From a virus (lineage: Duplodnaviria > Heunggongvirae > Uroviricota > Caudoviricetes): a stretch of 22,939 bases of DNA. Below, piece after piece: positions 3,726 through 21,231 of the stretch. The stretch lies in IMG/VR virus record IMGVR_UViG_2671181100_000006, positions 1 to 22,939 of that record; one strand, given 5' to 3'. The notes under the pieces were generated by a model that saw only the letters and a program-made list of their open reading frames with translations, was not told where the DNA came from and ran no database searches. The translations under genes and the position numbers were made by a program. Every line of letters begins with the position of its first letter. Position 1 is the first letter of the stretch.

Positions 3726-4386
3726 TGCTGTTATCCTCACAGCAGTGGTGCCGCCCCTCTGGGTCAGTGGATACATGTCCACAGATATCGCACTCTATTT
3801 CATCCAGCACTACCGACGCTAGCTGCTCTTTGATGTGCAATCGCGGCTCACCATCTTTCGGCTCAGGCCACACCCGCGCCTTATTCACCGCTAGTTTTTC
3901 AATCATCGCCTTAGTGATTTGCTCGTCAGTGATACCGGCGCGGCGTTGGGCATCCCATAGCAGAAACTGCAAATCGGCCCACTCGCTGAGGTCGCCTGGT
4001 GCTGCTGCGGCTTCCAGCGCTTCTTTGCTTAAGTGTTTCAGTGGACCAATCGGGCCGACATTACCAAAGGTGGCCTGAGACCACGCGGTGTGCTCGCGGC
4101 GAACGTGCTCGCGGTCCGGCGCTGGCTGCGGTATGGCGTAGAGTTGCGCACCAAAGTCAGGAAGTTCGCCAGTGACCTGGACGAACTTTTGTTTACCTCC
4201 GTCAATTCCTAGCGGGTAGTAAGCTCTAATCTCTGCCACCGGCTCACTGTCCATTTCGGCCAGCGCGATGCGAGCCAGCTCCTCGGCCTCTTCAGCTGGC
4301 AGCATGACGTTGCTTCCGGCTCCGTAGGTTTCACGCCATGACTTAATTTTTTCCAGACGTTCTCTGGTTATGATTGATTGGGTCAT
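3718..4386 (-). CDS. MazG-like nucleotide pyrophosphohydrolase-type protein (DUF550 / dATP-dGTP pyrophosphohydrolase-like)
   Basis: 222 aa with AAGGAG RBS. C-terminal region (...SKEALEAAAAPGDLSEWADLQFLLWDAQRRAGITDEQITKAMIEKLAVNKARVWPEP...) resembles MazG-type all-alpha NTP pyrophosphohydrolase segments seen in prophage proteins. Assignment from memory, not a search. Confidence 0.5.
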   Translation of the reverse strand: MTQSIITRERLEKIKSWRETYGAGSNVMLPAEEAEELARIALAEMDSEPVAEIRAYYPLGIDGGKQKFVQVTGELPDFGAQLYAIPQPAPDREHVRREHTAWSQATFGNVGPIGPLKHLSKEALEAAAAPGDLSEWADLQFLLWDAQRRAGITDEQITKAMIEKLAVNKARVWPEPKDGEPRLHIKEQLASVVLDEIECDICGHVSTDPEGRHHCCEDNSND

Positions 4387-12536: not shown

Positions 12537-13517
12537 ATGAGAGCACTACTAACCCCTGAGATTGCCCCACGCATGGGCGTTGTTCTGCTTCGCCCAGGCG
12601 CTGATCTCATGCCGATGTTCAGGAGAGGGCGGGTACTGATTGAGCCTGCACCGGAAAAATACAGCGACTACGCAACCGGCGCTATCCCTCCCGCCACGCA
12701 GCCACTGGCAGAAGACCCGGTTTTGAAGCCAGTCTTCGAAAACAAAGACGTCATTCTGCGCGCGGGTGGTATCAGCTCGCTGGAGGCCGAGCTGGAGCGT
12801 CGTTTTGAATGCCAGTATCCGCATGGCTCGTGGCACAGCGAAAATTTTACGCTGTTCCGGCATGAGCCTGGCAGCATCCGCCTTTGCTGGGCCTGCGATA
12901 ACCTGGTGCGTGATCAGTACACAGAGACGCTGGCAGGCATTGCGCGTGGGAACCTGGTATCCTGGTTGATAACGGTCATCCGCTCACAGCTGGGGTTCAA
13001 CGAAGACCATCAACTGACGATCCCAGAGTTGTGCTGGTGGCTGGTAATAAACAATCTGGCGCACGTCATCCCTGAATCGCTGGCCCGGAAAGCCCTGCGA
13101 TTGCCGGAAATAAAGCATCAACCGGTGATGAAGGAGAGCGATATTGTGCCGGAGCCAGCGGCGAGCGAAGTGGTGCAGAAAAAGATTCTCGGTCTTCGCG
13201 TAGATCCTGAAACGCCGGAATCATTTATGCTGCGACCAAAGCGCCGCCGCTGGGTAAACGAGAGCTGGACGCGCTGGGTTAAGTCTCAGTCGTGTGTCTG
13301 CTGTAACAAACAAGCAGATGATCCCCATCACCTGATAGGCCACGGACAAGGTGGAATGGGAACAAAAGCGCATGACCTGTTTGTGTTGCCGCTTTGCAGA
13401 GCGCATCACGACGAGTTGCACGCTGACACCGTGGCATTTGAGGAGAAGCACGGCTCACAGCTGGAGCTGCTGTTTCGATTTCTGGATCGTTCGCTGGCAA
13501 TTAGCGTGCTGGCATAG
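12537..13517 (+). CDS. Phage protein with C-terminal DUF968-like / HNH-like Cys-His motif
   Basis: C-terminus CVCCNKQADDPHHLIGHGQGGMGTKAHDLFVLPLCRAHHDELH resembles HNH/DUF968 zinc-binding regions common in lambdoid nin regions. Assignment from memory. Confidence 0.5.
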   Translation: MRALLTPEIAPRMGVVLLRPGADLMPMFRRGRVLIEPAPEKYSDYATGAIPPATQPLAEDPVLKPVFENKDVILRAGGISSLEAELERRFECQYPHGSWHSENFTLFRHEPGSIRLCWACDNLVRDQYTETLAGIARGNLVSWLITVIRSQLGFNEDHQLTIPELCWWLVINNLAHVIPESLARKALRLPEIKHQPVMKESDIVPEPAASEVVQKKILGLRVDPETPESFMLRPKRRRWVNESWTRWVKSQSCVCCNKQADDPHHLIGHGQGGMGTKAHDLFVLPLCRAHHDELHADTVAFEEKHGSQLELLFRFLDRSLAISVLA

Positions 13518-13530
13518 TGGAGAACGCATA

Positions 13531-14109
13531 ATGATTAACCCGTCCGAGGTTGGAAAAGCTGGTGAAATGGTCAGGCTGAAAACGCTGGAGGCCATCTGGA
13601 TTCAGGGGAAGCTGCGCATGTGGGGCCGCTGGTCTTACATCGGCGGCGGTAGTGGCGGCAATATGTTTAACCAGTTACTGGCTTCCGGGAAAGTCACTAA
13701 AACAGCCATCAACGAAGCATTACGCCGGATGAAGAAGTCCGGCATCTCGAAGCCAGAGCTTGAGGCGTTTTTTCGTGAAATACTCGCGGGGAAAAACAAA
13801 AGCGGCCTGGCCTTCTGTACAGACGATGAAGGACTGCTGATTGATAAGGTACTGGGGGCAGTCCTCATTACGGGTGGTCATAAAGAGCTATACCACCTGC
13901 TGGTGGAGCATTACCGGTTACGGAAGAGCAAACGCCGCATAGCGGAAGAGCTCTATGAAAAGCATCCAGACTGGTGCTTTATGACATGCAGACGAAGAGT
14001 TGATACATGGCTAAGTTTGGCAGAATCGATGCTGTACGCACCAATGTGTGACGCATTCGGCACAAATGGCGACAGATTTTACTTGCAAAGTGAGCCAGAA
14101 ACTGCTTGA
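13531..14109 (+). CDS. Q: Late-gene antiterminator Q (phage 82-type family)
   Basis: Start placed at the ATG (MINPSEV...) with GGAG RBS, in frame with the longer track ORF. Motif KLRMWGRW resembles the ERWGAW signature of phage 82-type Q proteins. Followed by a terminator. Confidence 0.65.
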   Translation: MINPSEVGKAGEMVRLKTLEAIWIQGKLRMWGRWSYIGGGSGGNMFNQLLASGKVTKTAINEALRRMKKSGISKPELEAFFREILAGKNKSGLAFCTDDEGLLIDKVLGAVLITGGHKELYHLLVEHYRLRKSKRRIAEELYEKHPDWCFMTCRRRVDTWLSLAESMLYAPMCDAFGTNGDRFYLQSEPETA

Positions 14110-14665: not shown

Positions 14666-15052
14666 ATGTCCGAACCAATAACCGGCACAGGCTTAGCTGG
14701 TGGCGCTTTAACTGGGGCGAGTGTTTACGGGCTATTAACCGGTACAGACTACGGTGTTGTGTTCGGGGCATTTGCTGGTTCCGTCTTTTATATAGCGACA
14801 GCGGCCGATTTGAGCGCCCCACGACGGATGGCATATTTCGTTGTGTCCTATATTGCTGGAGTTCTGTGCTCCGGGCTGGTCGGTTCTAAGTTATCCGACC
14901 TTACCGGGTACAACGATAAGCCTCTGGATGCAATTGGTGCCGTAATCATTTCGGCATTGGCCGTAAAAATACTCACCTTCCTGAACAATCAGGATATTGG
15001 CTCGCTGGTGGCGCTAATAACGCGCCGGGGAGGTTCCGGTGGTACTAAATGA
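14666..15052 (+). CDS. Holin (multi-TMD small membrane protein)
   Basis: 128-aa Gly/Ala-rich hydrophobic protein with several predicted TM helices and a charged C-terminus, first gene of the lysis cassette. RBS GAGGGGGA. Confidence 0.6.
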   Translation: MSEPITGTGLAGGALTGASVYGLLTGTDYGVVFGAFAGSVFYIATAADLSAPRRMAYFVVSYIAGVLCSGLVGSKLSDLTGYNDKPLDAIGAVIISALAVKILTFLNNQDIGSLVALITRRGGSGGTK

Positions 15053-15320
15053 TCCTACTGCAACCATCAATGCGCTGTTATGTGCTGGTGTCGTTGTTAC
15101 GTTGATGTTCTATCGCCGCAGAGACTCACGTCATCGTAAGTGGGTGTCGCGGCTGGCATGGCTGATAACAGTGATTTACAGCTCTGTGCCGTTGGCGTAT
15201 CTGTGCGGCATCTATCCCTATTCATCATGGCCCACCATTGCGGCCAATATCATGATCCTTGTTGTGCTGCTGAGCGTAAGAGGCAATGTAGCGCGGCTGG
15301 TTGATGCACTGAGGCACTAA
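15039..15320 (+). CDS. Small membrane protein of the lysis cassette (second holin / antiholin-like)
   Basis: 93 aa with three hydrophobic segments. GTG start preceded by GGGAGG. Overlaps the holin 3' end and its stop overlaps the endolysin start. Confidence 0.5.
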   Translation: MVLNDPTATINALLCAGVVVTLMFYRRRDSRHRKWVSRLAWLITVIYSSVPLAYLCGIYPYSSWPTIAANIMILVVLLSVRGNVARLVDALRH

Positions 15321-15949
15321 TGAATCAAACACAATTCCAGAAGGCGGCTGGTATCAGCGCCGGGTTAGCTGCGCGCTGGTATCCGCATATTACAGCTGCG
15401 ATGAAAGAGTTCGGCATCACTGCTCCACTCGATCAGGCAATGTTCATTGCTCAATGCGGCCATGAAAGCCTCGGTTTTAACAGGGTGGTGGAGAATTTCA
15501 ACTACAGCATCGCCGGGCTTGCTGATTTTGTTCGTTACGGCAGGTTAACGCAGGATCAGGCCAATTCCCTCGGGCGTAGCCAGTCGGAAACAGTGTTACC
15601 TCTGGAGCGCCAGCGGGCTATCGCCAACATTGTCTATAGCAAGCGGTTGGGTAACAACAGGGCAACTGATGGATGGGCTTATCGTGGGCGCGGACTTATT
15701 CAAATAACCGGATTGTCAAATTACCGGGACTGCGGTAACGGGCTGAAGGTTGATCTAGTGGCACAGCCAGAATTACTGGAGCAGTCCTCGTACGCGGCCC
15801 GTAGTGCAGCGTGGTTCTATGTCTCAAAAGGTTGCTTGAAATATCCGGGTGAGCTTGTCCGGGTTACTCAGATTATCAACGGCGGACAAAACGGGATTAA
15901 TAACCGGCGCGCTCGCTTCCTGAAAGCAAAATCGGTACTGGTGGTGTGA
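15320..15949 (+). CDS. Endolysin, glycoside hydrolase family 19 (chitinase-like lysozyme)
   Basis: GH19 signature ...WAYRGRGLIQITGLSNYRDCG... and catalytic-region CGHESLGF. Sits between the holin genes and the spanins. Confidence 0.75.
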   Translation: MNQTQFQKAAGISAGLAARWYPHITAAMKEFGITAPLDQAMFIAQCGHESLGFNRVVENFNYSIAGLADFVRYGRLTQDQANSLGRSQSETVLPLERQRAIANIVYSKRLGNNRATDGWAYRGRGLIQITGLSNYRDCGNGLKVDLVAQPELLEQSSYAARSAAWFYVSKGCLKYPGELVRVTQIINGGQNGINNRRARFLKAKSVLVV

Positions 15950-16227
15950 TCATGGGAATCGAAGCTATCGCGGGGCTGGTGGTTGTCATCCTGGGTGCTA
16001 TCGCTGGCGCGTTCGGCATCGGCCATGCTCGCGGGACCAGTAAGGCAGAAGCCAAAGCCGATCAGCAGCGTACCGAAGAGAACGCCGCCGCCACCGTCGC
16101 CGCGGCAGAACGTAAGGCGGAAGTTGTGAAAGAGGCAAGCGATGTACAGCAAACCGTTAGTCATATGCCTGATGACGATGTTGATCGCGAGCTGCGCGAA
16201 AAGTTTACCCGCCCCGGTAGTCGTTGA
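15946..16227 (+). CDS. i-spanin (Rz-like inner-membrane spanin subunit)
   Basis: N-terminal TM segment (IAGLVVVILGAIAGAFGI) followed by a charged periplasmic domain. Start is GTG at 15946 or ATG at 15952. Confidence 0.6.
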   Translation: MIMGIEAIAGLVVVILGAIAGAFGIGHARGTSKAEAKADQQRTEENAAATVAAAERKAEVVKEASDVQQTVSHMPDDDVDRELREKFTRPGSR

Positions 16228-16357
16228 TACGGCCTGCAGCTGGGTGAGGGTCATCTACCTGACCGACCACGATATTGACGTGCTGGATAAGCAGACCAAG
16301 CGCGACATTCTGGCGCATAACAAAGCAGTGGAAGTCAACTGCCAGAAAGGGAAGTGA
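16142..16357 (+). CDS. o-spanin (Rz1-like outer-membrane lipoprotein), overlapping the i-spanin in another frame
   Basis: Signal peptide with lipobox (MTMLIASC). Begins inside the i-spanin gene in a different frame and extends beyond it. Confidence 0.6.
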   Translation: MYSKPLVICLMTMLIASCAKSLPAPVVVDTACSWVRVIYLTDHDIDVLDKQTKRDILAHNKAVEVNCQKGK

Positions 16358-16418
16358 TATTGCTCAAAATTAAATGAGATTTATCTTAATTGCTTTAGTG
16401 CCAGGAAGTAGATTGAAG

Positions 16419-16664
16419 ATGCTGCAATTGGCAGTATCACTCTGGGACATAACAATGGGACAGTATTACTACGTCAATAAAAATGTTCAGGCAAACGGAG
16501 ATCATGAGGTGCATGTCACCGGGTGTACCTTTATGCCTGCATCAGAAAACCGCGTGTACCTTGGAATATTTGAAACCTGCCGTCCTGCAGTAGTAGAAGC
16601 GAAGAAATATTATTCTCAATCAAATGGTTGTTATTACTGCTGTAGAGCTTGTCATACTTCATAG
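16419..16664 (+). CDS. Hypothetical small protein with Cys-rich C-terminus (…NGCYYCCRACHTS)
   Basis: Track ORF 16374-16664. Start uncertain (ATG at 16374, 16419 or 16455); AGGAAG lies upstream of 16419. Followed by a terminator. Confidence 0.4.
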   Translation: MLQLAVSLWDITMGQYYYVNKNVQANGDHEVHVTGCTFMPASENRVYLGIFETCRPAVVEAKKYYSQSNGCYYCCRACHTS

Positions 16665-16682
16665 TTAACCAAAAACAATCGC

Positions 16683-16708
16683 AAGGTCGCCAATGGCGGC
16701 CTTTTTTA
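16683..16708 (+). terminator. Rho-independent terminator
   Basis: AAGGTCGCC-aat-GGCGGCCTT (one G-U wobble) followed by TTTTTT. Confidence 0.5.
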
Positions 16709-16731
16709 TTGCCAGAAGCAGGAGAAGAAGC

Positions 16732-16926
16732 ATGTTAACAGTAAAAGTAATGTCACCAGATGGTGGCGAAGAAATCCATTGCGGCCTGAGCGTTGGTTTC
16801 AACCCCAATCAGCAGAGTATCGCAGTGTCGGGAATGGACCAGAACGTTTTCCTGAAGCAGGGAGAAGTGGCGTACGTGATGAACGCAAACGGAAAGACCA
16901 TTTCCCGTTACGAGCACTTGACCTGA
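16732..16926 (+). CDS. Hypothetical small protein (64 aa)
   Basis: Start at the internal ATG (MLTVKVMSPDGG...) preceded by AGGAG; the longer track ORF would run through the terminator. Confidence 0.5.
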   Translation: MLTVKVMSPDGGEEIHCGLSVGFNPNQQSIAVSGMDQNVFLKQGEVAYVMNANGKTISRYEHLT

Positions 16927-17264
16927 CAATAAGCAGCACTGGCGCCCTTCATTGAAGGGCATCAATAATGATAAACCGAAGCATCTGCCTTAAGTGTTAT
17001 AAAAAACCCCGTGGAGGAAATCCCAAAGCTACGGGGTGCTGTACAGCCAGCCAATGACTGATTGTAGCCACGAAGTTGGTTTATTTTCTACTGGTTGAGA
17101 ATAAAACTGAGAGCCAGGAAGGCTTGAGAGTGGCTCATTCATGAGCTCACGGGTAGAACGGCAGACTTTGTCATGGCAGAGCAAAGTTATAAGTTAGTTT
17201 AGGTAACATTTCGGATATAACAAGCGTAGCGGGGTATTCCTAATAATGGAGCACCGCAGCTAAA

Positions 17265-17303
17265 GCATTACAGGAGCCATTCACCGAGTGGCTTCGATAA
17301 TGC
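17265..17303. repeat. Copy 1 of a ~40-bp nested stem-loop element (GCATTACAG-gAGCCAttcaccgagTGGCTtc-GATAATGC)
   Basis: Outer inverted repeat GCATTA/TAATGC; inner stem AGCCA/TGGCT; loop TTCACCGAG. Lies 25 nt upstream of the ATG at 17329. Confidence 0.6.
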
Positions 17304-17328
17304 TCCCCACATCGCACAGAGGTAAGAC

Positions 17329-17574
17329 ATGGCAGAGATCACCGTATCCGAACAAATCCGCCTGGATATCATCAAAAAAGTTAACTACGACACCGCAGCG
17401 GCCAAGCTGGCCATTGACTGGGTAGGGGACAGCTATCTGAAGTCTGAGCTATTCGCAGACTCTTTCGATCGTGTTTTCACGGAAAGCGAGATTGTCTCGA
17501 AGACCCGTAAGGCCATCCAGGAAGCGACCGAAGCGCTGGCGCTGTTTGATACCAGCGCAGAGCAGGCGAGCTAA
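17329..17574 (+). CDS. Hypothetical protein (81 aa)
   Basis: RBS GAGGT. Flanked on both sides by copies of the stem-loop element. Confidence 0.6.
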   Translation: MAEITVSEQIRLDIIKKVNYDTAAAKLAIDWVGDSYLKSELFADSFDRVFTESEIVSKTRKAIQEATEALALFDTSAEQAS

Positions 17575-17575
17575 G

Positions 17576-17614
17576 GCATTACAGCAGGCATTCACTGAGT
17601 GCCTGTGATAATGC
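17576..17614. repeat. Copy 2 of the stem-loop element (GCATTACAGc-AGGCAttcactgagTGCCTg-TGATAATGC)
   Basis: Same outer inverted repeat. Inner stem is AGGCA/TGCCT, a compensatory G-C swap relative to copy 1 that preserves pairing. Begins right after the stop codon of the 17329-17574 gene. Confidence 0.6.
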
Positions 17615-17679
17615 CGTGCTCAATTGCGGTACTGTTGTTTCCCCTGTTAATCTGTCCCAAACAAACCGATGGGGATAGG

Positions 17680-18060
17680 GACGTGAAAAAGTTACTTTTT
17701 GCAGCATTAATTGGTGTTTCAGCTTTAACAATTACCGCATGTGCGCCAACAGTCCAGAAAGTAGATTACAACCAGAGATCAATGCTTTTATCTCTTGGAA
17801 TGAATAAAAACGACGTCATGCAGATCATGGGGTCGCCACGCAGGACTGATGTGAACCAGGAACGCGAACGCTGGATATACTGGAATAAGGCTCTCTATGG
17901 TTACACAATCATTGATAACGAACAATTGGCTAACGATCGACTGGTTATAACGTTCGTTAATGGTAAGGTCACCAAGTGGGGTCAGCAAACGCTGACTGAT
18001 GACATAATGGAGTCATCACAAAAGAGTGCACAGGCTTATGCTGAGGCATTCAAGAAATAG
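17680..18060 (+). CDS. Phage lipoprotein, BamE/SmpA-OmlA-like (moron)
   Basis: Start at GTG (MKKLLFAALIGVSALTITAC...) giving a signal peptide plus lipobox ITAC; the longer track ORF start is unlikely. BamE-like assignment (...LSLGMNKNDVMQIMGSPRR...ERWIYW...) is from memory. Confidence 0.55.
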   Translation, partial: DVKKLLFAALIGVSALTITACAPTVQKVDYNQRSMLLSLGMNKNDVMQIMGSPRRTDVNQERERWIYWNKALYGYTIIDNEQLANDRLVITFVNGKVTKWGQQTLTDDIMESSQKSAQAYAEAFKK

Positions 18061-18079
18061 ACATTTCAGTCAAATGATA

Positions 18080-18104
18080 ACCTCGCTTTGGCGGGGTTTT
18101 TTTA
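18080..18104 (+). terminator. Rho-independent terminator
   Basis: CCTCGC-tttg-GCGGGG (one G-U wobble) followed by T8. Confidence 0.6.
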
Positions 18105-18125
18105 TATCTAAAAGAGGTAAAACCG

Positions 18126-18311
18126 ATGAGCTTTAAACATGAACTTGGTCAGGTGGTAACCGTTACTATCAGTGAAGAAAAAGGGCATATCAAAGCTCGC
18201 GCTGAATATACGCATAGCCCCAATCAGTACCTTATTCATTATCACGCAGCAGACGGGCGAGCTGTAGACGCATGGTTTGAAGAAGGGGAGCTGTCTCCAT
18301 CTGCACTGTAG
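18126..18311 (+). CDS. Hypothetical small protein (61 aa)
   Basis: RBS AAAGAGG; compact ORF between a terminator and copy 3 of the stem-loop element. Confidence 0.5.
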   Translation: MSFKHELGQVVTVTISEEKGHIKARAEYTHSPNQYLIHYHAADGRAVDAWFEEGELSPSAL

Positions 18312-18317
18312 ACGCAC

Positions 18318-18360
18318 GCATTACAGAAGCCCTTCACATTGCGAGGAGCTTTGATAATGC
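18318..18360. repeat. Copy 3 of the stem-loop element (GCATTACAG-AAGCCCttcacattgcgagGAGCTTt-GATAATGC), more diverged
   Basis: Same outer GCATTACAG...GATAATGC arms. Inner region has an insertion and one stem mismatch. Begins 7 nt after the stop of the 18126-18311 gene. Confidence 0.5.
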
Positions 18361-18498
18361 GAATGAATATCATTATCGATGGATGGAAGGGGGTGTGTAG
18401 ACGTTTAGATGTCTAAATGTCTACATGGTCGATTTCTCCTGGCAATGTGCAAATGATAGTCATTATCATTTAAGGGTCCTCCCAGAGGGGGAGGTTAC

Positions 18499-18520
18499 CA
18501 CGGGGCGGCGGACTCGCGGA
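18499..18520. other. Candidate cosN (cohesive-end site); predicted 12-nt cohesive end GGGCGGCGGACT at 18503-18514
   Basis: CACGGGGCGGCGGACTCGCGG matches the phage lambda cosN region as I recall it (TACGGGGCGGCGACCTCGCGG) at 18 of 21 positions. Lies ~115 bp upstream of the Nu1-like small terminase gene, the lambda arrangement. Confidence 0.55.
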
Positions 18521-18631
18521 AAACGGCTAGTTTTCATTTTTCATAGTCATCATCATCATGTGCACAGGTTATTGATTTTCCAGATGTCGGATTTTCAATG
18601 ATGTCGAATCGTATAAAAAGTGTTCACCATC

Positions 18632-19123
18632 ATGGATCAGGAAATCGCTACTTTAAAACTCAATATCAACCAGCTTGCCGGGATTACTGGCGTACACCGG
18701 CAGACCGTCGCTACCAGGCTAAAAAATGTCAGTCCCGCCCAGGGAAGCAACAGCAAACTTAAGTTGTATCTTGTCACCGATATTCTGACAGAATTAATGA
18801 TCCCGACGGTTTCCTCATCGAATCTTGAAGAGATGACACCCCCTGATCGCCTCGCTCACTGGAAAGCAGAAAACGAGCGGTTGAAATTTGAAGTAGATAC
18901 CAAACAACTTATCCCCGCCGAAGACGTCGCACGTGAATTTTCAATGATGGCGAAAGCCGTCGTCATGGTACTTGAAACACTTCCGGACATTCTTGAGCGC
19001 GACTGTGCACTTACGCCGGTTGCGGTATCACGCGTGCAAAGCGTGATTGATGACCTGCGCGATCAGGTTGCCCAAAAAGTAATGGACGCTGAACCAGAGG
19101 AGGATGAGCCAGAGGAGGACTGA
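18632..19123 (+). CDS. Terminase small subunit (lambda Nu1-like, N-terminal winged HTH)
   Basis: N-terminus LKLNINQLAGITGVHRQTVATRL... parallels lambda Nu1 (VNKKQLADIFGASIRTIQNW...); acidic C-terminus. Start is ATG at 18632 or GTG at 18620. Stop overlaps the large-subunit start (ATGA). Confidence 0.7.
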   Translation: MDQEIATLKLNINQLAGITGVHRQTVATRLKNVSPAQGSNSKLKLYLVTDILTELMIPTVSSSNLEEMTPPDRLAHWKAENERLKFEVDTKQLIPAEDVAREFSMMAKAVVMVLETLPDILERDCALTPVAVSRVQSVIDDLRDQVAQKVMDAEPEEDEPEED

Positions 19124-21231
19124 TGACAAAACGGGCATCTGCCAGGGGGATACGCCGCGATGTCTCCGGTATTCTTCGTGCCCCACGTCGTATGCAGGTG
19201 GCCGATGCGGTCAGCTCATATATGCGTGTGCCGATGGGGGCGGGTAACTCCGTACCATGGGACCCCAATCTGGCCCCTTATATTATTGAGCCGATGAATT
19301 GTCTGGCATCCCGTGAATATGATGCGGTGGTGTTTGTCGGACCGGCCCGAACCGGGAAAACGATTGGCCTGATTGATGGCTGGATTGTCTACAACATCGT
19401 TTGTGATCCCGCTGACATGCTGGTTATTCAGGTCTCCGAAGAGAAAGCGCGTGAACATTCCAAGAAACGCCTCGATCGCACATTCCGGTGTAGTCCGGAA
19501 GTAAAATCGCGACTCAGTCCGCGTCGTAACGACAATAACGTTCACGACCGCACCTTCCGGGCCGGTAACTATCTCAAACTGGGCTGGCCGTCAGTCAACA
19601 TTATGTCGTCGTCAGACTATAAAAGCGTGGCGTTGACTGACTATGACCGCTTTCCTGAAGATATCGACGGGGAAGGTGATGCATTTTCCCTGGGTTCGAA
19701 ACGTACCACTACGTTTATGTCCAGCGGCATGACTCTGGTTGAGAGTTCACCTGGCCGAGATATTCGTGACACGAAATGGCGACCAAACACCGCACATGAG
19801 GCACCGCCGACTACCGGCATATTATCGTTGTTTAATCGTGGTGACCGCCGCCGCCTTTACTGGCCGTGTCCGCATTGCGGAGAATATTTTCAGCCGGAGG
19901 TAGCCAATATGACGGGCTACCGGGATTCCCTTGATCCCGTTGTGGCAAGTGAGTCTGCATATCTCCAGTGCCCGGCCTGCAAAGGCAGGATCACCGCAGA
20001 TATGAAACGTGAACTGAATATCCGCCATGTCTGGTTACGCGATGGAGAAAAAATAGATCGTGATGGCAACAGATTTGGGGAGCCGCGGCGATCACGCATC
20101 GCTTCATTCTGGATGGAGGGGCCTGCGGCTGCATATCAGACATGGTCGCAGATGATATACAAATTCCTGACTGCTGAGCAGGAATATGAGTCCACCCAGA
20201 GTGAAGAGACGCTGAAAACGGTAGTTAATACCGACTTTGGTCGGCCTTATCTACCCCGAGCCAGTCTCGAACAACGTAAGAGTGAGCTGCTCGAACGACG
20301 CGCTGAAGACGTGCCGAAGCGATCTGTACCAGATGGTGTGCTCTTTATGACTGCAACCGTTGATGTGCAGGGCGGTAAATCCCGTCGTTTCGTGGTTCAG
20401 GTGACTGGCTACGGTGAGCAGGGTGAGAGATGGCTGGTAGATCGCTACAACATCCGCCAGTCTCTGCGGGCAAACGAGCACGGTGAATGTTACTCCATCG
20501 ATCCGGCAAGTTACCCGGAAGACTGGGATTTACTTTTGTCTGACGTGTTCGAAAAGTCATGGCCCTTAGCGAGTAACCCGTCAAAACGCATGCGGCTCAT
20601 GGCGATGGCTGTCGATTCCGGCGGTGAGGATGGTGTCACCGATAACGCATATAAGTTCTGGCGTAAGTGCCGCCGGGATGGGCTTGGTAAAAAGATTTTC
20701 CTCTTCAAGGGCGACAGTGTCCGACGCTCAAAACTAATTACCCGAACATTTCCTGATAACACTGACAGATCAACTCGCCGGGCAAAAGCCGCTGGCGATG
20801 TGCCGCTTTACCTTCTTCAGACTGATGCGCTGAAAGATCAGGTGAATAACGCCCTGTGGCGAGAATCACCCGGCCCGAACTATGTGCATTTCCCTAAATG
20901 GCTCGGCAGCTGGTTTTACGATGAGCTGACCTATGAGGAACGTTCACCCGATGGAAAATGGAGCAAACCGGGCCGAGGTCCGAATGAAGCTTTCGATCTA
21001 CTCGTTTATGCCGATGCGCTGGCCATATTGCACGGATACGAAAAGATCAAATGGCCGGATGCGCCTGAATGGGCGAGGCGGACAACGTGGATCGAAGAAA
21101 GCACGCCGGAAACTGGCGAAGTGTCACCCACGTTATCAGCAAAAACGACCCATAGCAGAAAAAAACGGAAGGCAAATAAGCCGGATGTTGAAAACAATCC
21201 GTGGACTACATCATCAGGAGGCTGGGTGTGA
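19123..21231 (+). CDS. Terminase large subunit (lambda GpA-like)
   Basis: 702 aa. Recognisable similarity to lambda gpA: WPCPHCGEYF vs ACPHCGEEQY, VNTDFG vs VNTTLG, NEAFDLLVYADALA vs NEALDCFVYALAAL. RBS GAGGAGG. Confidence 0.9.
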   Translation: MTKRASARGIRRDVSGILRAPRRMQVADAVSSYMRVPMGAGNSVPWDPNLAPYIIEPMNCLASREYDAVVFVGPARTGKTIGLIDGWIVYNIVCDPADMLVIQVSEEKAREHSKKRLDRTFRCSPEVKSRLSPRRNDNNVHDRTFRAGNYLKLGWPSVNIMSSSDYKSVALTDYDRFPEDIDGEGDAFSLGSKRTTTFMSSGMTLVESSPGRDIRDTKWRPNTAHEAPPTTGILSLFNRGDRRRLYWPCPHCGEYFQPEVANMTGYRDSLDPVVASESAYLQCPACKGRITADMKRELNIRHVWLRDGEKIDRDGNRFGEPRRSRIASFWMEGPAAAYQTWSQMIYKFLTAEQEYESTQSEETLKTVVNTDFGRPYLPRASLEQRKSELLERRAEDVPKRSVPDGVLFMTATVDVQGGKSRRFVVQVTGYGEQGERWLVDRYNIRQSLRANEHGECYSIDPASYPEDWDLLLSDVFEKSWPLASNPSKRMRLMAMAVDSGGEDGVTDNAYKFWRKCRRDGLGKKIFLFKGDSVRRSKLITRTFPDNTDRSTRRAKAAGDVPLYLLQTDALKDQVNNALWRESPGPNYVHFPKWLGSWFYDELTYEERSPDGKWSKPGRGPNEAFDLLVYADALAILHGYEKIKWPDAPEWARRTTWIEESTPETGEVSPTLSAKTTHSRKKRKANKPDVENNPWTTSSGGWV

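Follow-up and report, generated by a model that had tools for sequence, protein, structure and literature searches.

A predicted lambda-type cos site preceding a DUF1441 small terminase gene in a lambdoid prophage

Positions 18474–18636 of the window, by which we mean the whole stretch of 22,939 nucleotides analysed here, appear from sequence comparison to form the cos of a lambdoid prophage with a head module of the Gifsy-2, Fels-1 and mEp213 type. It is very likely that the site is a lambda-type cos with nicks at the positions predicted below, and the assignment of three candidate small-terminase sites as R3, R2 and R1 is put forward with confidence a little better than even. The site is an ordinary lambda-type packaging (cos) site, common in related prophages. 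Its type is known, its layout follows that of lambda and its cosN variant is the commonest among close relatives, so that the general understanding of such sites is unchanged. A cos site fixes the likely ends and the orientation of the packaged genome, and knowledge of the likely ends aids both annotation and the judgement of accessory genes that lie next to a DNA end.

cosN, cosQ and the predicted cohesive end

The sequence CACGGGGCGGCGGACTCGCGG, located at 18499–18519, had been described in the original prediction as near-identical to the lambda cosN region, and formal alignment bears this out. With up to three mismatches allowed, the lambda string ACGGGGCGGCGACCTCGCGG has a single match in the window, at 18500–18519, where 18 of 20 positions are identical, and it has no match in 100 dinucleotide-preserving shuffles of the window. 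The nicking site itself, CG-GGGCGGCGGACT-CG (18501–18516), is predicted to be cut at 18502/18503 on the top strand and 18514/18515 on the bottom strand, which would leave the 12-nt 5′ cohesive end GGGCGGCGGACT (18503–18514, plus strand) on the left end of the virion DNA. This 12-mer is identical to lambda GGGCGGCGACCT at 10 of 12 positions and differs at positions 9 and 10, which read GA here and AC in lambda. Rotational symmetry of the 16-bp cosN is 10/16 in the window and 10/16 in lambda, in agreement with the partial twofold symmetry described for the lambda site (PMC9026076).

Lambda-like cos sites form a class with 12-base 5′ ends resembling that of lambda, in which the left half (bases 1–7) is conserved and the right half is free to vary (PMC4669245). 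The window resembles this class in identity of the 12-bp core, CG flanks, conservation by halves and symmetry. Across 65 related IMG/VR viral contigs, bases 1–7 of the cohesive end are invariant and bases 8–12 variable, the CG flanks (18501–18502 and 18515–18516) never vary, and the exact 12-mer is the commonest variant (32/65). The likeness to lambda extends beyond cosN, with 66 of 97 columns identical in an alignment from −57 to +35. Upstream lies the heptamer GGGTCCT (18474–18480, plus strand), which we take to be cosQ, the packaging-termination signal. It is identical to the lambda heptamer, invariant in 59/59 unique relatives and positioned 29 nt from the nick, 1 nt closer than in lambda (30 nt), as expected of a 7-bp element at a fixed distance upstream of a lambda-like cosN. 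The spacer between cosQ and cosN (18481–18500) is variable in sequence and kept in length, with 22–23 nt from cosQ to the nick in the alignment of 59 unique sequences. The 7-bp cosQ has been described as highly conserved (PMC4669245). This element had been overlooked in the original prediction.

Several deposited genome records of relatives begin at the site. The LLS record begins at the base homologous to 18503 and annotates the 5′ cohesive end GGGCGGCGCGCT, an end that is stated to be inferred (PMC12315714). The cdtI record begins at GGGCGGGAGCGT, likewise homologous to 18503 and directly after a sequence ending in CCACG, and the record of Hafnia phage yong2 begins directly after its 12-mer, at the base homologous to 18515. 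These record starts, the empty shuffles, the conservation of cosQ, CG flanks and spacing with lambda, and the GpA type of the large terminase all argue against a chance resemblance to cosN in a phage with headful (pac) packaging, which we regard as extremely improbable. The predicted 12-nt end is supported by comparison with lambda and with relatives. Exact-pattern scans gave 45 matches in IMG/VR and 22 in metagenome contigs; no contig starts or stops at the site in these scans, which makes them uninformative on virion ends. The 12-mer GGGCGGCGGACT is absent from the literature searched.

Terminase genes and the likely genome ends

Terminase genes lie directly downstream of cosN, as had been predicted, and the large subunit is indeed GpA-like. 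The gene terL (19123–21231, plus strand) encodes a 702-aa GpA-family protein, the enzyme expected to cut at cosN, with an N-terminal GpA ATPase domain (GpA_ATPase, PF05876, 1.7e-71) and a C-terminal GpA endonuclease domain (GpA_nuclease, PF20454, 1.2e-84). Its alignment with lambda gpA covers 616 columns at 24% identity (E 2e-16). Large terminases of the GpA family track with 5′ cos ends (PMC12315714).

The description of the small terminase as Nu1-like does not hold in the same way. The gene terS (18632–19123, plus strand) begins 117 bp from cosN, directly upstream of terL, at a start identical to that annotated in E. coli prophages, and encodes a 163-aa protein with a predicted N-terminal helix-turn-helix. 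TerS has no match to Phage_Nu1 (PF07471) even at E ≤ 10, against 2.5e-100 for the lambda Nu1 control, and has full-length family matches to DUF1441 (PF07278, 1.4e-40) and to phrog_141, 'terminase small subunit' (1.2e-65). TerS is a member of DUF1441/phrog_141 and only a remote relative of Nu1. Comparison with Nu1 by BLASTP is weak (E 0.27), and hhalign returns E 0.002 with a probability of 13%, the partner being a single Nu1 sequence because a scan of IMG/VR with lambda Nu1 gave only sequences 98–100% identical to it. The PHROG profiles of TerS and Nu1 cross-match in both directions (3.4e-10 and 5.6e-8). A structure model of TerS (mean pLDDT 78) has the order strand, helix, helix, strand, helix at residues 9–55. 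Foldseek finds local matches of this model to terminase and MerR-type domains, none below E 1e-3, among them the gpNu1 DNA-binding domain (1j9i; probability 0.90, rmsd 3.0 over 49 columns, E above 1e-3), and a PDB sequence search with TerS returned nothing relevant.

The gene order after cosN is terS, terL and a lambda-family portal gene, whose reading frame runs to the window's end. Upstream of cos are the Q antiterminator and lysis genes, together with a low-GC accessory cluster (16374–18311) that includes a BamE-like lipoprotein gene. As a lambda-type cosN stands in front of a GpA-family TerL, this cluster should therefore lie at the right end of the packaged DNA, where comparison supports the earlier placement of an accessory (moron) cluster. 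Judged from sequence, the packaged genome likely has its left end at 18503, with terS first, and its right end at 18514. A PICI cos, in which cosQ and cosN stand beside rpp in the absence of any terminase of the element's own, was rejected, since terS, terL and portal follow directly and the Q antiterminator and lysis genes come before. HK97-type cos sites go with a different terminase family, a neighbouring HNH endonuclease gene and overhangs of the 3′ type; the GpA-family TerL and the lambda-like cosQ and cosN made an alignment with HK97 superfluous.

The state of these genes also bears on whether the site, a true cos by descent, has become an uncut relic in a defective prophage. Many enterobacterial prophages are defective and every match in IMG/VR and in metagenomes lies inside a contig, as such a relic would allow. 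Against this, terS, terL and portal (to the window's end) are open and have full-length family matches, all conserved cos positions are intact in the window, and the plaque-forming phages LLS, mEp043, mEp213, Eeyore and Flotzy share the architecture, which together render a relic improbable.

Candidate small-terminase sites downstream of cosN

The first element downstream of the cohesive end is an I2-like segment with A and T tracts, CGGAAAACGGCTAGTTTTCATTTTTCATA (18517–18545), within which CGCGGRAAWCGGCTRGTTTT is nearly invariant in relatives; lambda carries CGCGGGTTTTCGCTATTTATGAAAATTTT at this position, and I2 is known as an A/T-rich segment at bp 18–50 (PMC4856287). It is followed by GTCATCATCATCAT (18546–18559, plus strand; bp 44–57 from the end), a block invariant in 59 unique sequences that we propose as the main small-terminase binding site. 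In lambda and N15, R3 lies at bp 48–65 from the end, a position that in lambda represents a critical spacing to cosN (PMC9026076); complex cos sites add to it an IHF site, an inverted R2 and a forward R1. The invariant block sits where lambda has this critical site, and a CATCAT run is found at the equivalent place in Fels-1 and VT1-Sakai.

Beyond the R3-like block is a candidate IHF site resembling I1, CAGGTTATTGATT (18565–18577, plus strand), with one mismatch to the consensus YAANNNNTTGATW. Matches to this consensus are at chance level in the window (22 found vs 22 expected) and were rejected as independent evidence; support for the site is positional, as the TTGAT core between R3 and R2 is conserved and cdtI has a perfect consensus there. 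An inverted, R2-like site follows, TCAATGATGTCGAATC (18595–18610, minus strand; terminase site taken as 18595–18608), in which ATGTCGAAT is invariant in 59 sequences, and after it an equally invariant R1-like site, TTCACCATCATGGA (18623–18636, plus strand). The R3-like and R1-like sites form a direct repeat (D2, 81% identical), and the R2-like and R1-like sites form an inverted repeat of 14 nt (I3, 79% complementary). Inverted sites also occur at the R2-like position in Fels-1, VT1-Sakai and Gifsy-2. The family motif TTCRWCATCTT, at up to two mismatches, has five matches within 18546–18633 vs 0.13 expected, one of them with a single mismatch in the R2-like site (18598–18608); the CATCAT run yields overlapping matches, and the clustering is not an independent test because the motif, taken from other phages, derives from homologous sequences. 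Where the CATC core is kept, TerS also keeps the helix HRQTV; cdtI TerS reads HRDTVKKRL and is accompanied by a different repeat, TTTTCACCTG. Taken together, sequence comparison points to CATCAT-core sites, set forward, inverted and forward about an IHF-like site in the manner of Fels-1 and VT1-Sakai, as the better-supported candidates for terminase binding. The literature searched holds no description of a forward, inverted, forward CATCAT cosB for DUF1441 small terminases, and the arrangement offers a comparative picture of cosB for this family.

The original prediction had looked for these sites in two direct repeats, GATGTCGGATT (18583–18593) and GATGTCGAATC (18600–18610). The repeats are real (family D4; 10 nt, 90% identity) and marginal as a repeat, since in mononucleotide shuffles of the 117-bp spacer an equally good 10-mer repeat arises in 12%, and within 30 nt in 5%. 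Both copies match the family motif on the minus strand (18581–18591 with two mismatches, 18598–18608 with one), and the second, which falls in the R2-like site, is invariant in 59 unique relatives. The first copy, part of an extra R-like copy (18581–18593, minus strand), is by contrast variable, being replaced by unrelated sequence in the LLS group and in relatives with TerS 88–92% identical (L038, L057 and L059, which have GGGACCCGGCT there). Moreover, the copies lie at bp 81–108, beyond the lambda-critical bp 48–65 (PMC9026076) that here holds the CATCAT block, and 18623–18636 is a better partner for the second copy, with which it forms an inverted repeat. That the direct repeats as a pair are the cosB binding sites is accordingly unlikely.

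Rather more weight, if still well short of even, attaches to the possibility that the block 18595–18636 is kept for terS expression, as translation start or mRNA leader, and that cosB is of the simple N15 kind, containing one R3-like site. The block runs unbroken into the start codon (ATG at 18632) and is invariant save for two half-conserved middle positions. No clear Shine-Dalgarno sequence is visible, making an unusual terS initiation region plausible, and because the R1-like site overlaps the start codon its conservation may reflect translation start. N15 itself demonstrates that a single R site can suffice (PMC4669245). However, Fels-1, VT1-Sakai, Gifsy-2 and PhiR47_1 keep the inverted R2/R1 pair well upstream of the start codon, and the separation of the pair from the start codon in four relatives argues for a role at the level of DNA. 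No promoter was found on the plus strand of the spacer. An open reading frame of 58 aa that runs across cos (18425–18601) is without a PHROG match and was treated as non-coding.

Packaging model and relation to known systems

The cos mechanism proposed for this prophage is taken from lambda. Direct observation extends to the elements in the sequence, the degree to which they are conserved and the families to which the proteins belong; binding, nick positions and activity are extrapolated from lambda. TerS dimers would bind the CATCAT-core sites downstream of cosN via the predicted N-terminal helix-turn-helix, in the order R3 forward, R2 inverted and R1 forward, with the host protein IHF probably bending the DNA between R3 and R2. 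Such an assembly would place the GpA-type large terminase onto cosN, where it may nick both strands at the predicted positions, and strand separation would expose 5′-GGGCGGCGGACT on the left end. DNA would then be pumped into the prohead rightwards with the terS side leading until the next cos of the concatemer is reached, where the bottom-strand nick that terminates packaging would require cosQ (GGGTCCT). In the virion genome terS, terL and portal would come first, from 18503 onwards, and the lysis genes and accessory cluster last.

Besides cosQ, cosN and the A/T-tract segment that follows it, the site shares with lambda a downstream large terminase of the GpA family, and it parallels lambda in a candidate repeated site at the R3 position, succeeded by candidate IHF-like, inverted and forward sites. 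It differs from lambda in its compact cosB, with 117 bp from cosN to terS vs 178 bp, in cosB sequence that is unrelated to the lambda R sites, in a DUF1441 rather than Nu1 small terminase and in a last site that overlaps the terS start codon. The phages mEp213, mEp043 and LLS are closer. They have the same large terminase, a TerS of the same family that is 85% identical, and the same cosQ, I2, CATCAT block, TTGAT core and block from ATGTCGAAT to the ATG, whereas their end bases 9–10 are CG rather than GA, the sequence from the IHF-like site to R2 differs and the first of the two direct repeats is missing. Where PMC12315714 draws on Vahanian et al. 2017, a survey of natural cosN variants, GGGCGGCGCGCT is given as their putative cos, with the end inferred.

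Fels-1, Gifsy-2, VT1-Sakai, cdtI and PhiR47_1 encode DUF1441 small terminases 40–63% identical to TerS. They share the gene order, the CACG and CGCGG frame around the end, and short repeats in forward, inverted and forward orientation, of which the first two are separated by an A/T-rich IHF-like stretch, but their last site lies 50–90 nt before terS. Gifsy-2 and cdtI have other repeat cores (GACACTGAA and TTTTCACCTG respectively), and in Gifsy-2 AGGTACT stands where cosQ would be and the CG flanks are 14 nt apart. Gifsy-1 was rejected as a named relative given head genes of lambda or phage 21 type; the DUF1441 members are Gifsy-2 and Fels-1. The 12-nt end of N15 is likewise lambda-like and carries natural changes in its right half, and N15 has conserved cosQ and I2 elements (PMC4669245), yet it differs in a simple cosB, comprising a single R3 and a distant accessory site inside terS, and in a Nu1-like small terminase. 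More distantly, the cyanophage Cr-LKS3 is reported to have 5′ cohesive ends, GGGCTCGCG, with lambda-like flanks, and shares the first four bases and the 2-nt flanks (PMC9303873), whereas its end is 9 nt long, its host very distant and its TerS identity 30%. As the TerS of its relative Cy-LDV1 matches that of the window (29.7% identity) and Cr-LKS3 has 5′ ends, this lineage supports the pairing of such a TerS with 5′ cos.

A conserved Fur-box-like palindrome, GCAAATGATAGTCATTATC, lies at 18449–18467, about 54 nt before the nick, and may not belong to cos. It matches GATAATGATAATCATTATC at 16 of 19 positions, with 0.01 such matches expected in the window, and is found at the equivalent position in 37/57 unique relatives, in VT1-Sakai and in lambda, where it is perfect (TGATAAT-C-ATTATCA) and about 55 nt before the nick; it is absent from Gifsy-2, Fels-1, cdtI and PhiR47_1. 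That host Fur, or some other dimeric protein, really binds the palindrome 54–56 nt before the nick is highly doubtful. If true, such binding would make late-operon read-through across cos, or packaging termination at the right end, depend on the iron status of the cell. In a lesser version of such regulation, the overlap of the last candidate site with the start codon of the DUF1441 gene itself could couple packaging initiation to terS expression. The window also contains a second Fur-like box, at 18359–18377.

The cos site and its conservation

The 21-mer CACGGGGCGGCGGACTCGCGG is located at 18499-18519 of the window, where the original prediction had placed a lambda-like cosN, and the likeness holds on closer comparison. 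Searching with lambda ACGGGGCGGCGACCTCGCGG at up to 3 mismatches returns a single match in the 22.9-kb window (18500-18519, 2 mismatches), and none of 100 dinucleotide-preserving shuffles of the window gives a match at that threshold. The 12-mer flanked by conserved CG pairs is GGGCGGCGGACT (18503-18514), which differs from lambda GGGCGGCGACCT at positions 9 and 10, and the 16-bp cosN (18501-18516) has rotational symmetry at 10 positions in the window as in lambda, for which the same figure has been reported (PMC9026076). The alignment against lambda that had been suggested as a check covers -57 to +35 relative to the nick and matches at 66/97 columns. The lambda cosQ, GGGTCCT, is unchanged at 18474-18480 and starts 29 nt from the nick in the window compared with 30 nt in lambda. 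Similarity to lambda stops at about bp 36, as expected because packaging specificity is carried by cosB. Immediately 3' of cosN, the I2-like segment (18517-18545) includes CGCGGAAAACGGCTAGTTTTCATTTTT, with A and T tracts, the lambda counterpart of which is CGCGGGTTTTCGCTATTTATGAAAATTTT; the lambda I2 is an A/T-rich segment covering bp 18-50 (PMC4856287).

The site is shared by a group of relatives. BLAST of phage genomes identified mEp043, mEp213, Eeyore, Flotzy, LLS, Klebsiella phage Kp4865-4 and Hafnia phage yong2, which all share this arrangement, and near-identical prophage copies occur in three E. coli chromosomes with the annotation 'DUF1441 family protein'. An IMG/VR scan with the small terminase (TerS) yielded 597 confirmed relatives, the best 80 of which were kept, and 65 of these 80 fit a cosQ plus cosN pattern. 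Among the 65 so chosen, cosQ, the CACG and CGCGG frame and end bases 1-7 are invariant, while bases 8-12 vary (GGGCGGCGGACT, n=32; GGGCGGCGCGCT, n=17; GGGCGGCTGGCG, n=8; plus five less common forms). Feiss and colleagues describe the same pattern for lambda-like phages, with the left half and flanking CG conserved and bases 7-12 free (PMC4669245). Found in 32/65, the window 12-mer is therefore the commonest variant of its group and no rarity. In an exact search of one genome per species the 21-mer is present in Phytobacter, Rahnella, Kosakonia and Klebsiella spallanzanii. It also occurs in a haloarchaeal chromosome (Halorubrum sp. DTA46, NZ_JBLWMM010000001.1, 4086-4106), probably by coincidence; with even base composition 596 Gb would give about 0.3 exact matches, a figure that rises for G+C-rich DNA.

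Genome records of three relatives have their ends at the site. The first base of the LLS record is the homologue of 18503, and its annotation includes a '5' extended single-strand cohesive site GGGCGGCGCGCT', an end deduced by its authors from the TerL family and a putative mEp213 cos, their nanopore reads having left the cos region uncovered (PMC12315714). In the cdtI record the first bases are GGGCGGGAGCGT and the last are ...GGGTCCTTCCGGTGGGGTGGCCTGCCACG, and that of yong2 starts at the base homologous to 18515, its final 12 bases taking the place of the cohesive end. Three depositors have thus put their genome ends at one or other predicted nick. No IMG/VR or metagenome contigs end at the cos site, which says nothing either way because most are integrated prophages. 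By its sequence the site is a cos of lambda type that goes with an already known terminase class, that of the Gifsy-2/Fels-1/mEp213 head module, and headful packaging with a chance resemblance to cosN is effectively excluded. A relic cos site in a defective prophage is unlikely, since none of the conserved positions or packaging genes is disrupted.

Several relatives depart from the common form. Flotzy (PP925827.1, about 1553) reads ACG-GGGCGGCGC-CGCGG, 3 bp short of its relatives, to be explained either by a 9-nt cohesive end or by misassembly at the joined ends. Lambda-like flanks with 9-nt 5' cohesive ends have been reported for cyanophage Cr-LKS3 (PMC9303873), and the TerS of its relative Cy-LDV1 is 29.7% identical to that of the window. 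Gifsy-2, which like Fels-1 belongs to the DUF1441 terminase class, has AGGTACT at the place of the cosQ GGGTCCT of others (1000-1060), and its CACG and CGCGG flanks are 14 nt apart (GGTGGCTTCGGGCT), compared with 11 nt in VT1-Sakai (GGGCGGGCGGG; about 495-515). If these two sites are functional, overhang length differs within the class. Gifsy-1 (NC_010392.1), often cited for lambda-like cohesive ends, was rejected as a member, its head genes being of lambda/phage 21 type (gpE, gpD and gpC homologues).

The terminase genes

The large terminase gene terL (19123-21231) carries both GpA domains (1.7e-71 and 1.2e-84) and its product has 24% identity to lambda gpA (E 2e-16), confirming that a GpA-like enzyme is encoded just downstream; a portal gene of the lambda family follows from 21440 onwards. 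The small subunit is less simply Nu1-like than had been proposed. Its gene, terS (ATG at 18632, to 19123), matches DUF1441 (1.4e-40) and phrog_141 'terminase small subunit' (1.2e-65), and has no Pfam Phage_Nu1 match even at E up to 10, with a BLASTP E of 0.27 to Nu1 itself. What stands is a remote kinship: profile matches run both ways, from the window TerS to phrog_57, the family of Nu1 (3.4e-10), and from Nu1 to phrog_141 (5.6e-8), and hhalign of eight DUF1441 proteins with Nu1 is colinear from residue 9 onwards, albeit at low probability (E 0.002). The N-terminus LNINQLAGITGVHRQTVATRLKN aligns with Nu1 VNKKQLADIFGASIRTIQNWQEQ. In an AlphaFold model built from 33 homologues (mean pLDDT 78), residues 9-55 are predicted to form strand, helix, helix, strand, helix. 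Foldseek of this model against the PDB gave no match below E 1e-3; the best local matches, all above that threshold, are MerR-type winged-helix domains including the terminase DNA-binding domains 6hn7_B, 7lwr_A and 7lw0_A, and the gpNu1 DNA-binding domain 1j9i (probability 0.90, rmsd 3.0 over 49 columns). Our reading is that TerS probably works like Nu1 and is a distant relative of it, outside the Nu1 Pfam family. Phages with a CATC core have in common the helix HRQTV, the presumed recognition helix; cdtI carries HRDTVKKRL and a different repeat, TTTTCACCTG. Recognition helix and repeat core covary weakly.

Candidate TerS binding sites

The original prediction had offered two direct repeats as TerS binding sites. 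Both are present, GATGTCGGATT at 18583-18593 and GATGTCGAATC at 18600-18610, and are marginal as repeats, since shuffles of the 117-bp spacer hold an equally good 10-mer repeat in 12% of cases, and within 30 nt in 5%. Conservation was computed per column over 59 unique sequences. Invariant or nearly so are 18515-18536, 18546-18559 (GTCATCATCATCAT), the TTGAT core at 18572-18576 and, two half-conserved positions mid-block excepted, 18600-18636 (ATGTCGAATCGT..AAAAAGTGTTCACCATCATGG). The first repeat is poorly conserved, being replaced by GGGACCCGGCT in three relatives with TerS 88-92% identical to the window's (L038, L057 and L059) and by AGAGGCCATTT in the LLS group, so that only the second has been kept in evolution. 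The critical site in lambda and N15 is R3, which occupies bp 48-65 counted from the end and whose distance to cosN is important (PMC9026076); the corresponding place in the window (bp 44-57) is taken by the invariant CATCAT block. That the two repeats are the only terminase sites is therefore unlikely.

A repeat finder pairs 18545-18560 directly with 18619-18634 (81% identity) and 18595-18608 inversely with 18623-18636 (14 nt, 79% complementary), and the order of sites is therefore forward, inverted, forward: candidate R3-like (18546-18559, +), R2-like (18595-18610, -) and R1-like (18623-18636, +) elements. The plan recurs in more distant DUF1441 phages, as CATCATCATCAT, GATGATGAT and TCATCATC in both Fels-1 and VT1-Sakai, as CCACCATCATC, ATGTCGAAT and TTCGACATCGAA in PhiR47_1, and in Gifsy-2 with TTCAGTGTCGAA and TTCGACACTGAA, which are 100% complementary. 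The motif TTCRWCATCTT, written from these other phages, has 38 matches in the window at up to 2 mismatches, five of them within 18546-18633 (orientation + + - - +) where about 0.13 are expected (Poisson P ~1e-5 for at least 4), a non-independent test, given that the sequences are homologues and that matches overlap in the CATCAT run. The two minus-strand matches are the predicted repeats, which are R-like and in R2 orientation. The interval from R3 to R2 contains CAGGTTATTGATT, which departs from the IHF consensus at one position and is by itself at chance level (22 found in the window, 22 expected); the TTGAT core of this sequence is conserved in position, and in cdtI the IHF consensus there is perfect. 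It is somewhat unlikely that the block 18595-18636 is invariant because it serves terS expression rather than binding, as the inverted pair is kept 50-90 nt before the start codon in Fels-1, VT1-Sakai, Gifsy-2 and PhiR47_1.

By analogy with lambda, TerS dimers would bind R3, R2 and R1, aided by an IHF bend, and TerL would nick at 18502/18503 on the top strand and at 18514/18515 on the bottom strand. The first DNA into the prohead would be the left end, which reads 5'-GGGCGGCGGACT and leads on to terS, and cosQ at the next cos would be needed for the terminating bottom-strand nick. The comparative picture of cosB for DUF1441 terminases is possibly the one element here not previously described.

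The region upstream of cos

Upstream of cos is a standard lambdoid late region with a Q-like antiterminator (13351-14109), two holins (14666-15320), an endolysin (15320-15949) and Rz/Rz1-like spanins (15946-16357). From the spanin genes to cos, 16374-18311 holds about 2 kb of small genes with G+C of 0.41-0.49 against 0.51-0.60 on either side, including a DUF2560 gene (17329-17574), a BamE-like lipoprotein gene (17599-18060; BamE Pfam E 1.8e-5) with a terminator-like hairpin (18079-18098) and a 61-aa gene (18126-18311; phrog_8618). An ORF across the cos site (18425-18601) has no family match. The cluster precedes the predicted nick, and in position the accessory (moron) genes would indeed lie at the right end of virion DNA, as does the lipoprotein gene bor in lambda.

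Two Fur-box-like sequences, GCAAATGATAGTCATTATC and GCGAATGAATATCATTATC, lie just upstream of cosQ (18449-18467 and 18359-18377), each matching GATAATGATAATCATTATC at 16/19 positions, against a chance expectation of 0.01 for the window. The box nearer cos precedes the nick by 54-56 nt in the window, in 37/57 unique relatives, in lambda and in VT1-Sakai, the lambda counterpart (48447-48465) being a perfect TGATAAT-C-ATTATCA. It is absent in Gifsy-2, Fels-1, cdtI and PhiR47_1 and is clearly dispensable for packaging; the literature searched held no link between a Fur box and cosQ or cos. Between the two boxes is a 30-bp near-palindrome, TGTAGACGTTTAGATGTCTAAATGTCTACA (18397-18426), which does not look like an intrinsic terminator because no T-run follows it. 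Many relatives, mEp043 among them, have its core, TTTAGACGTCTAAA, at the corresponding place, and TGTAGACGCA occurs twice more just upstream, at 18263-18272 and 18308-18317.
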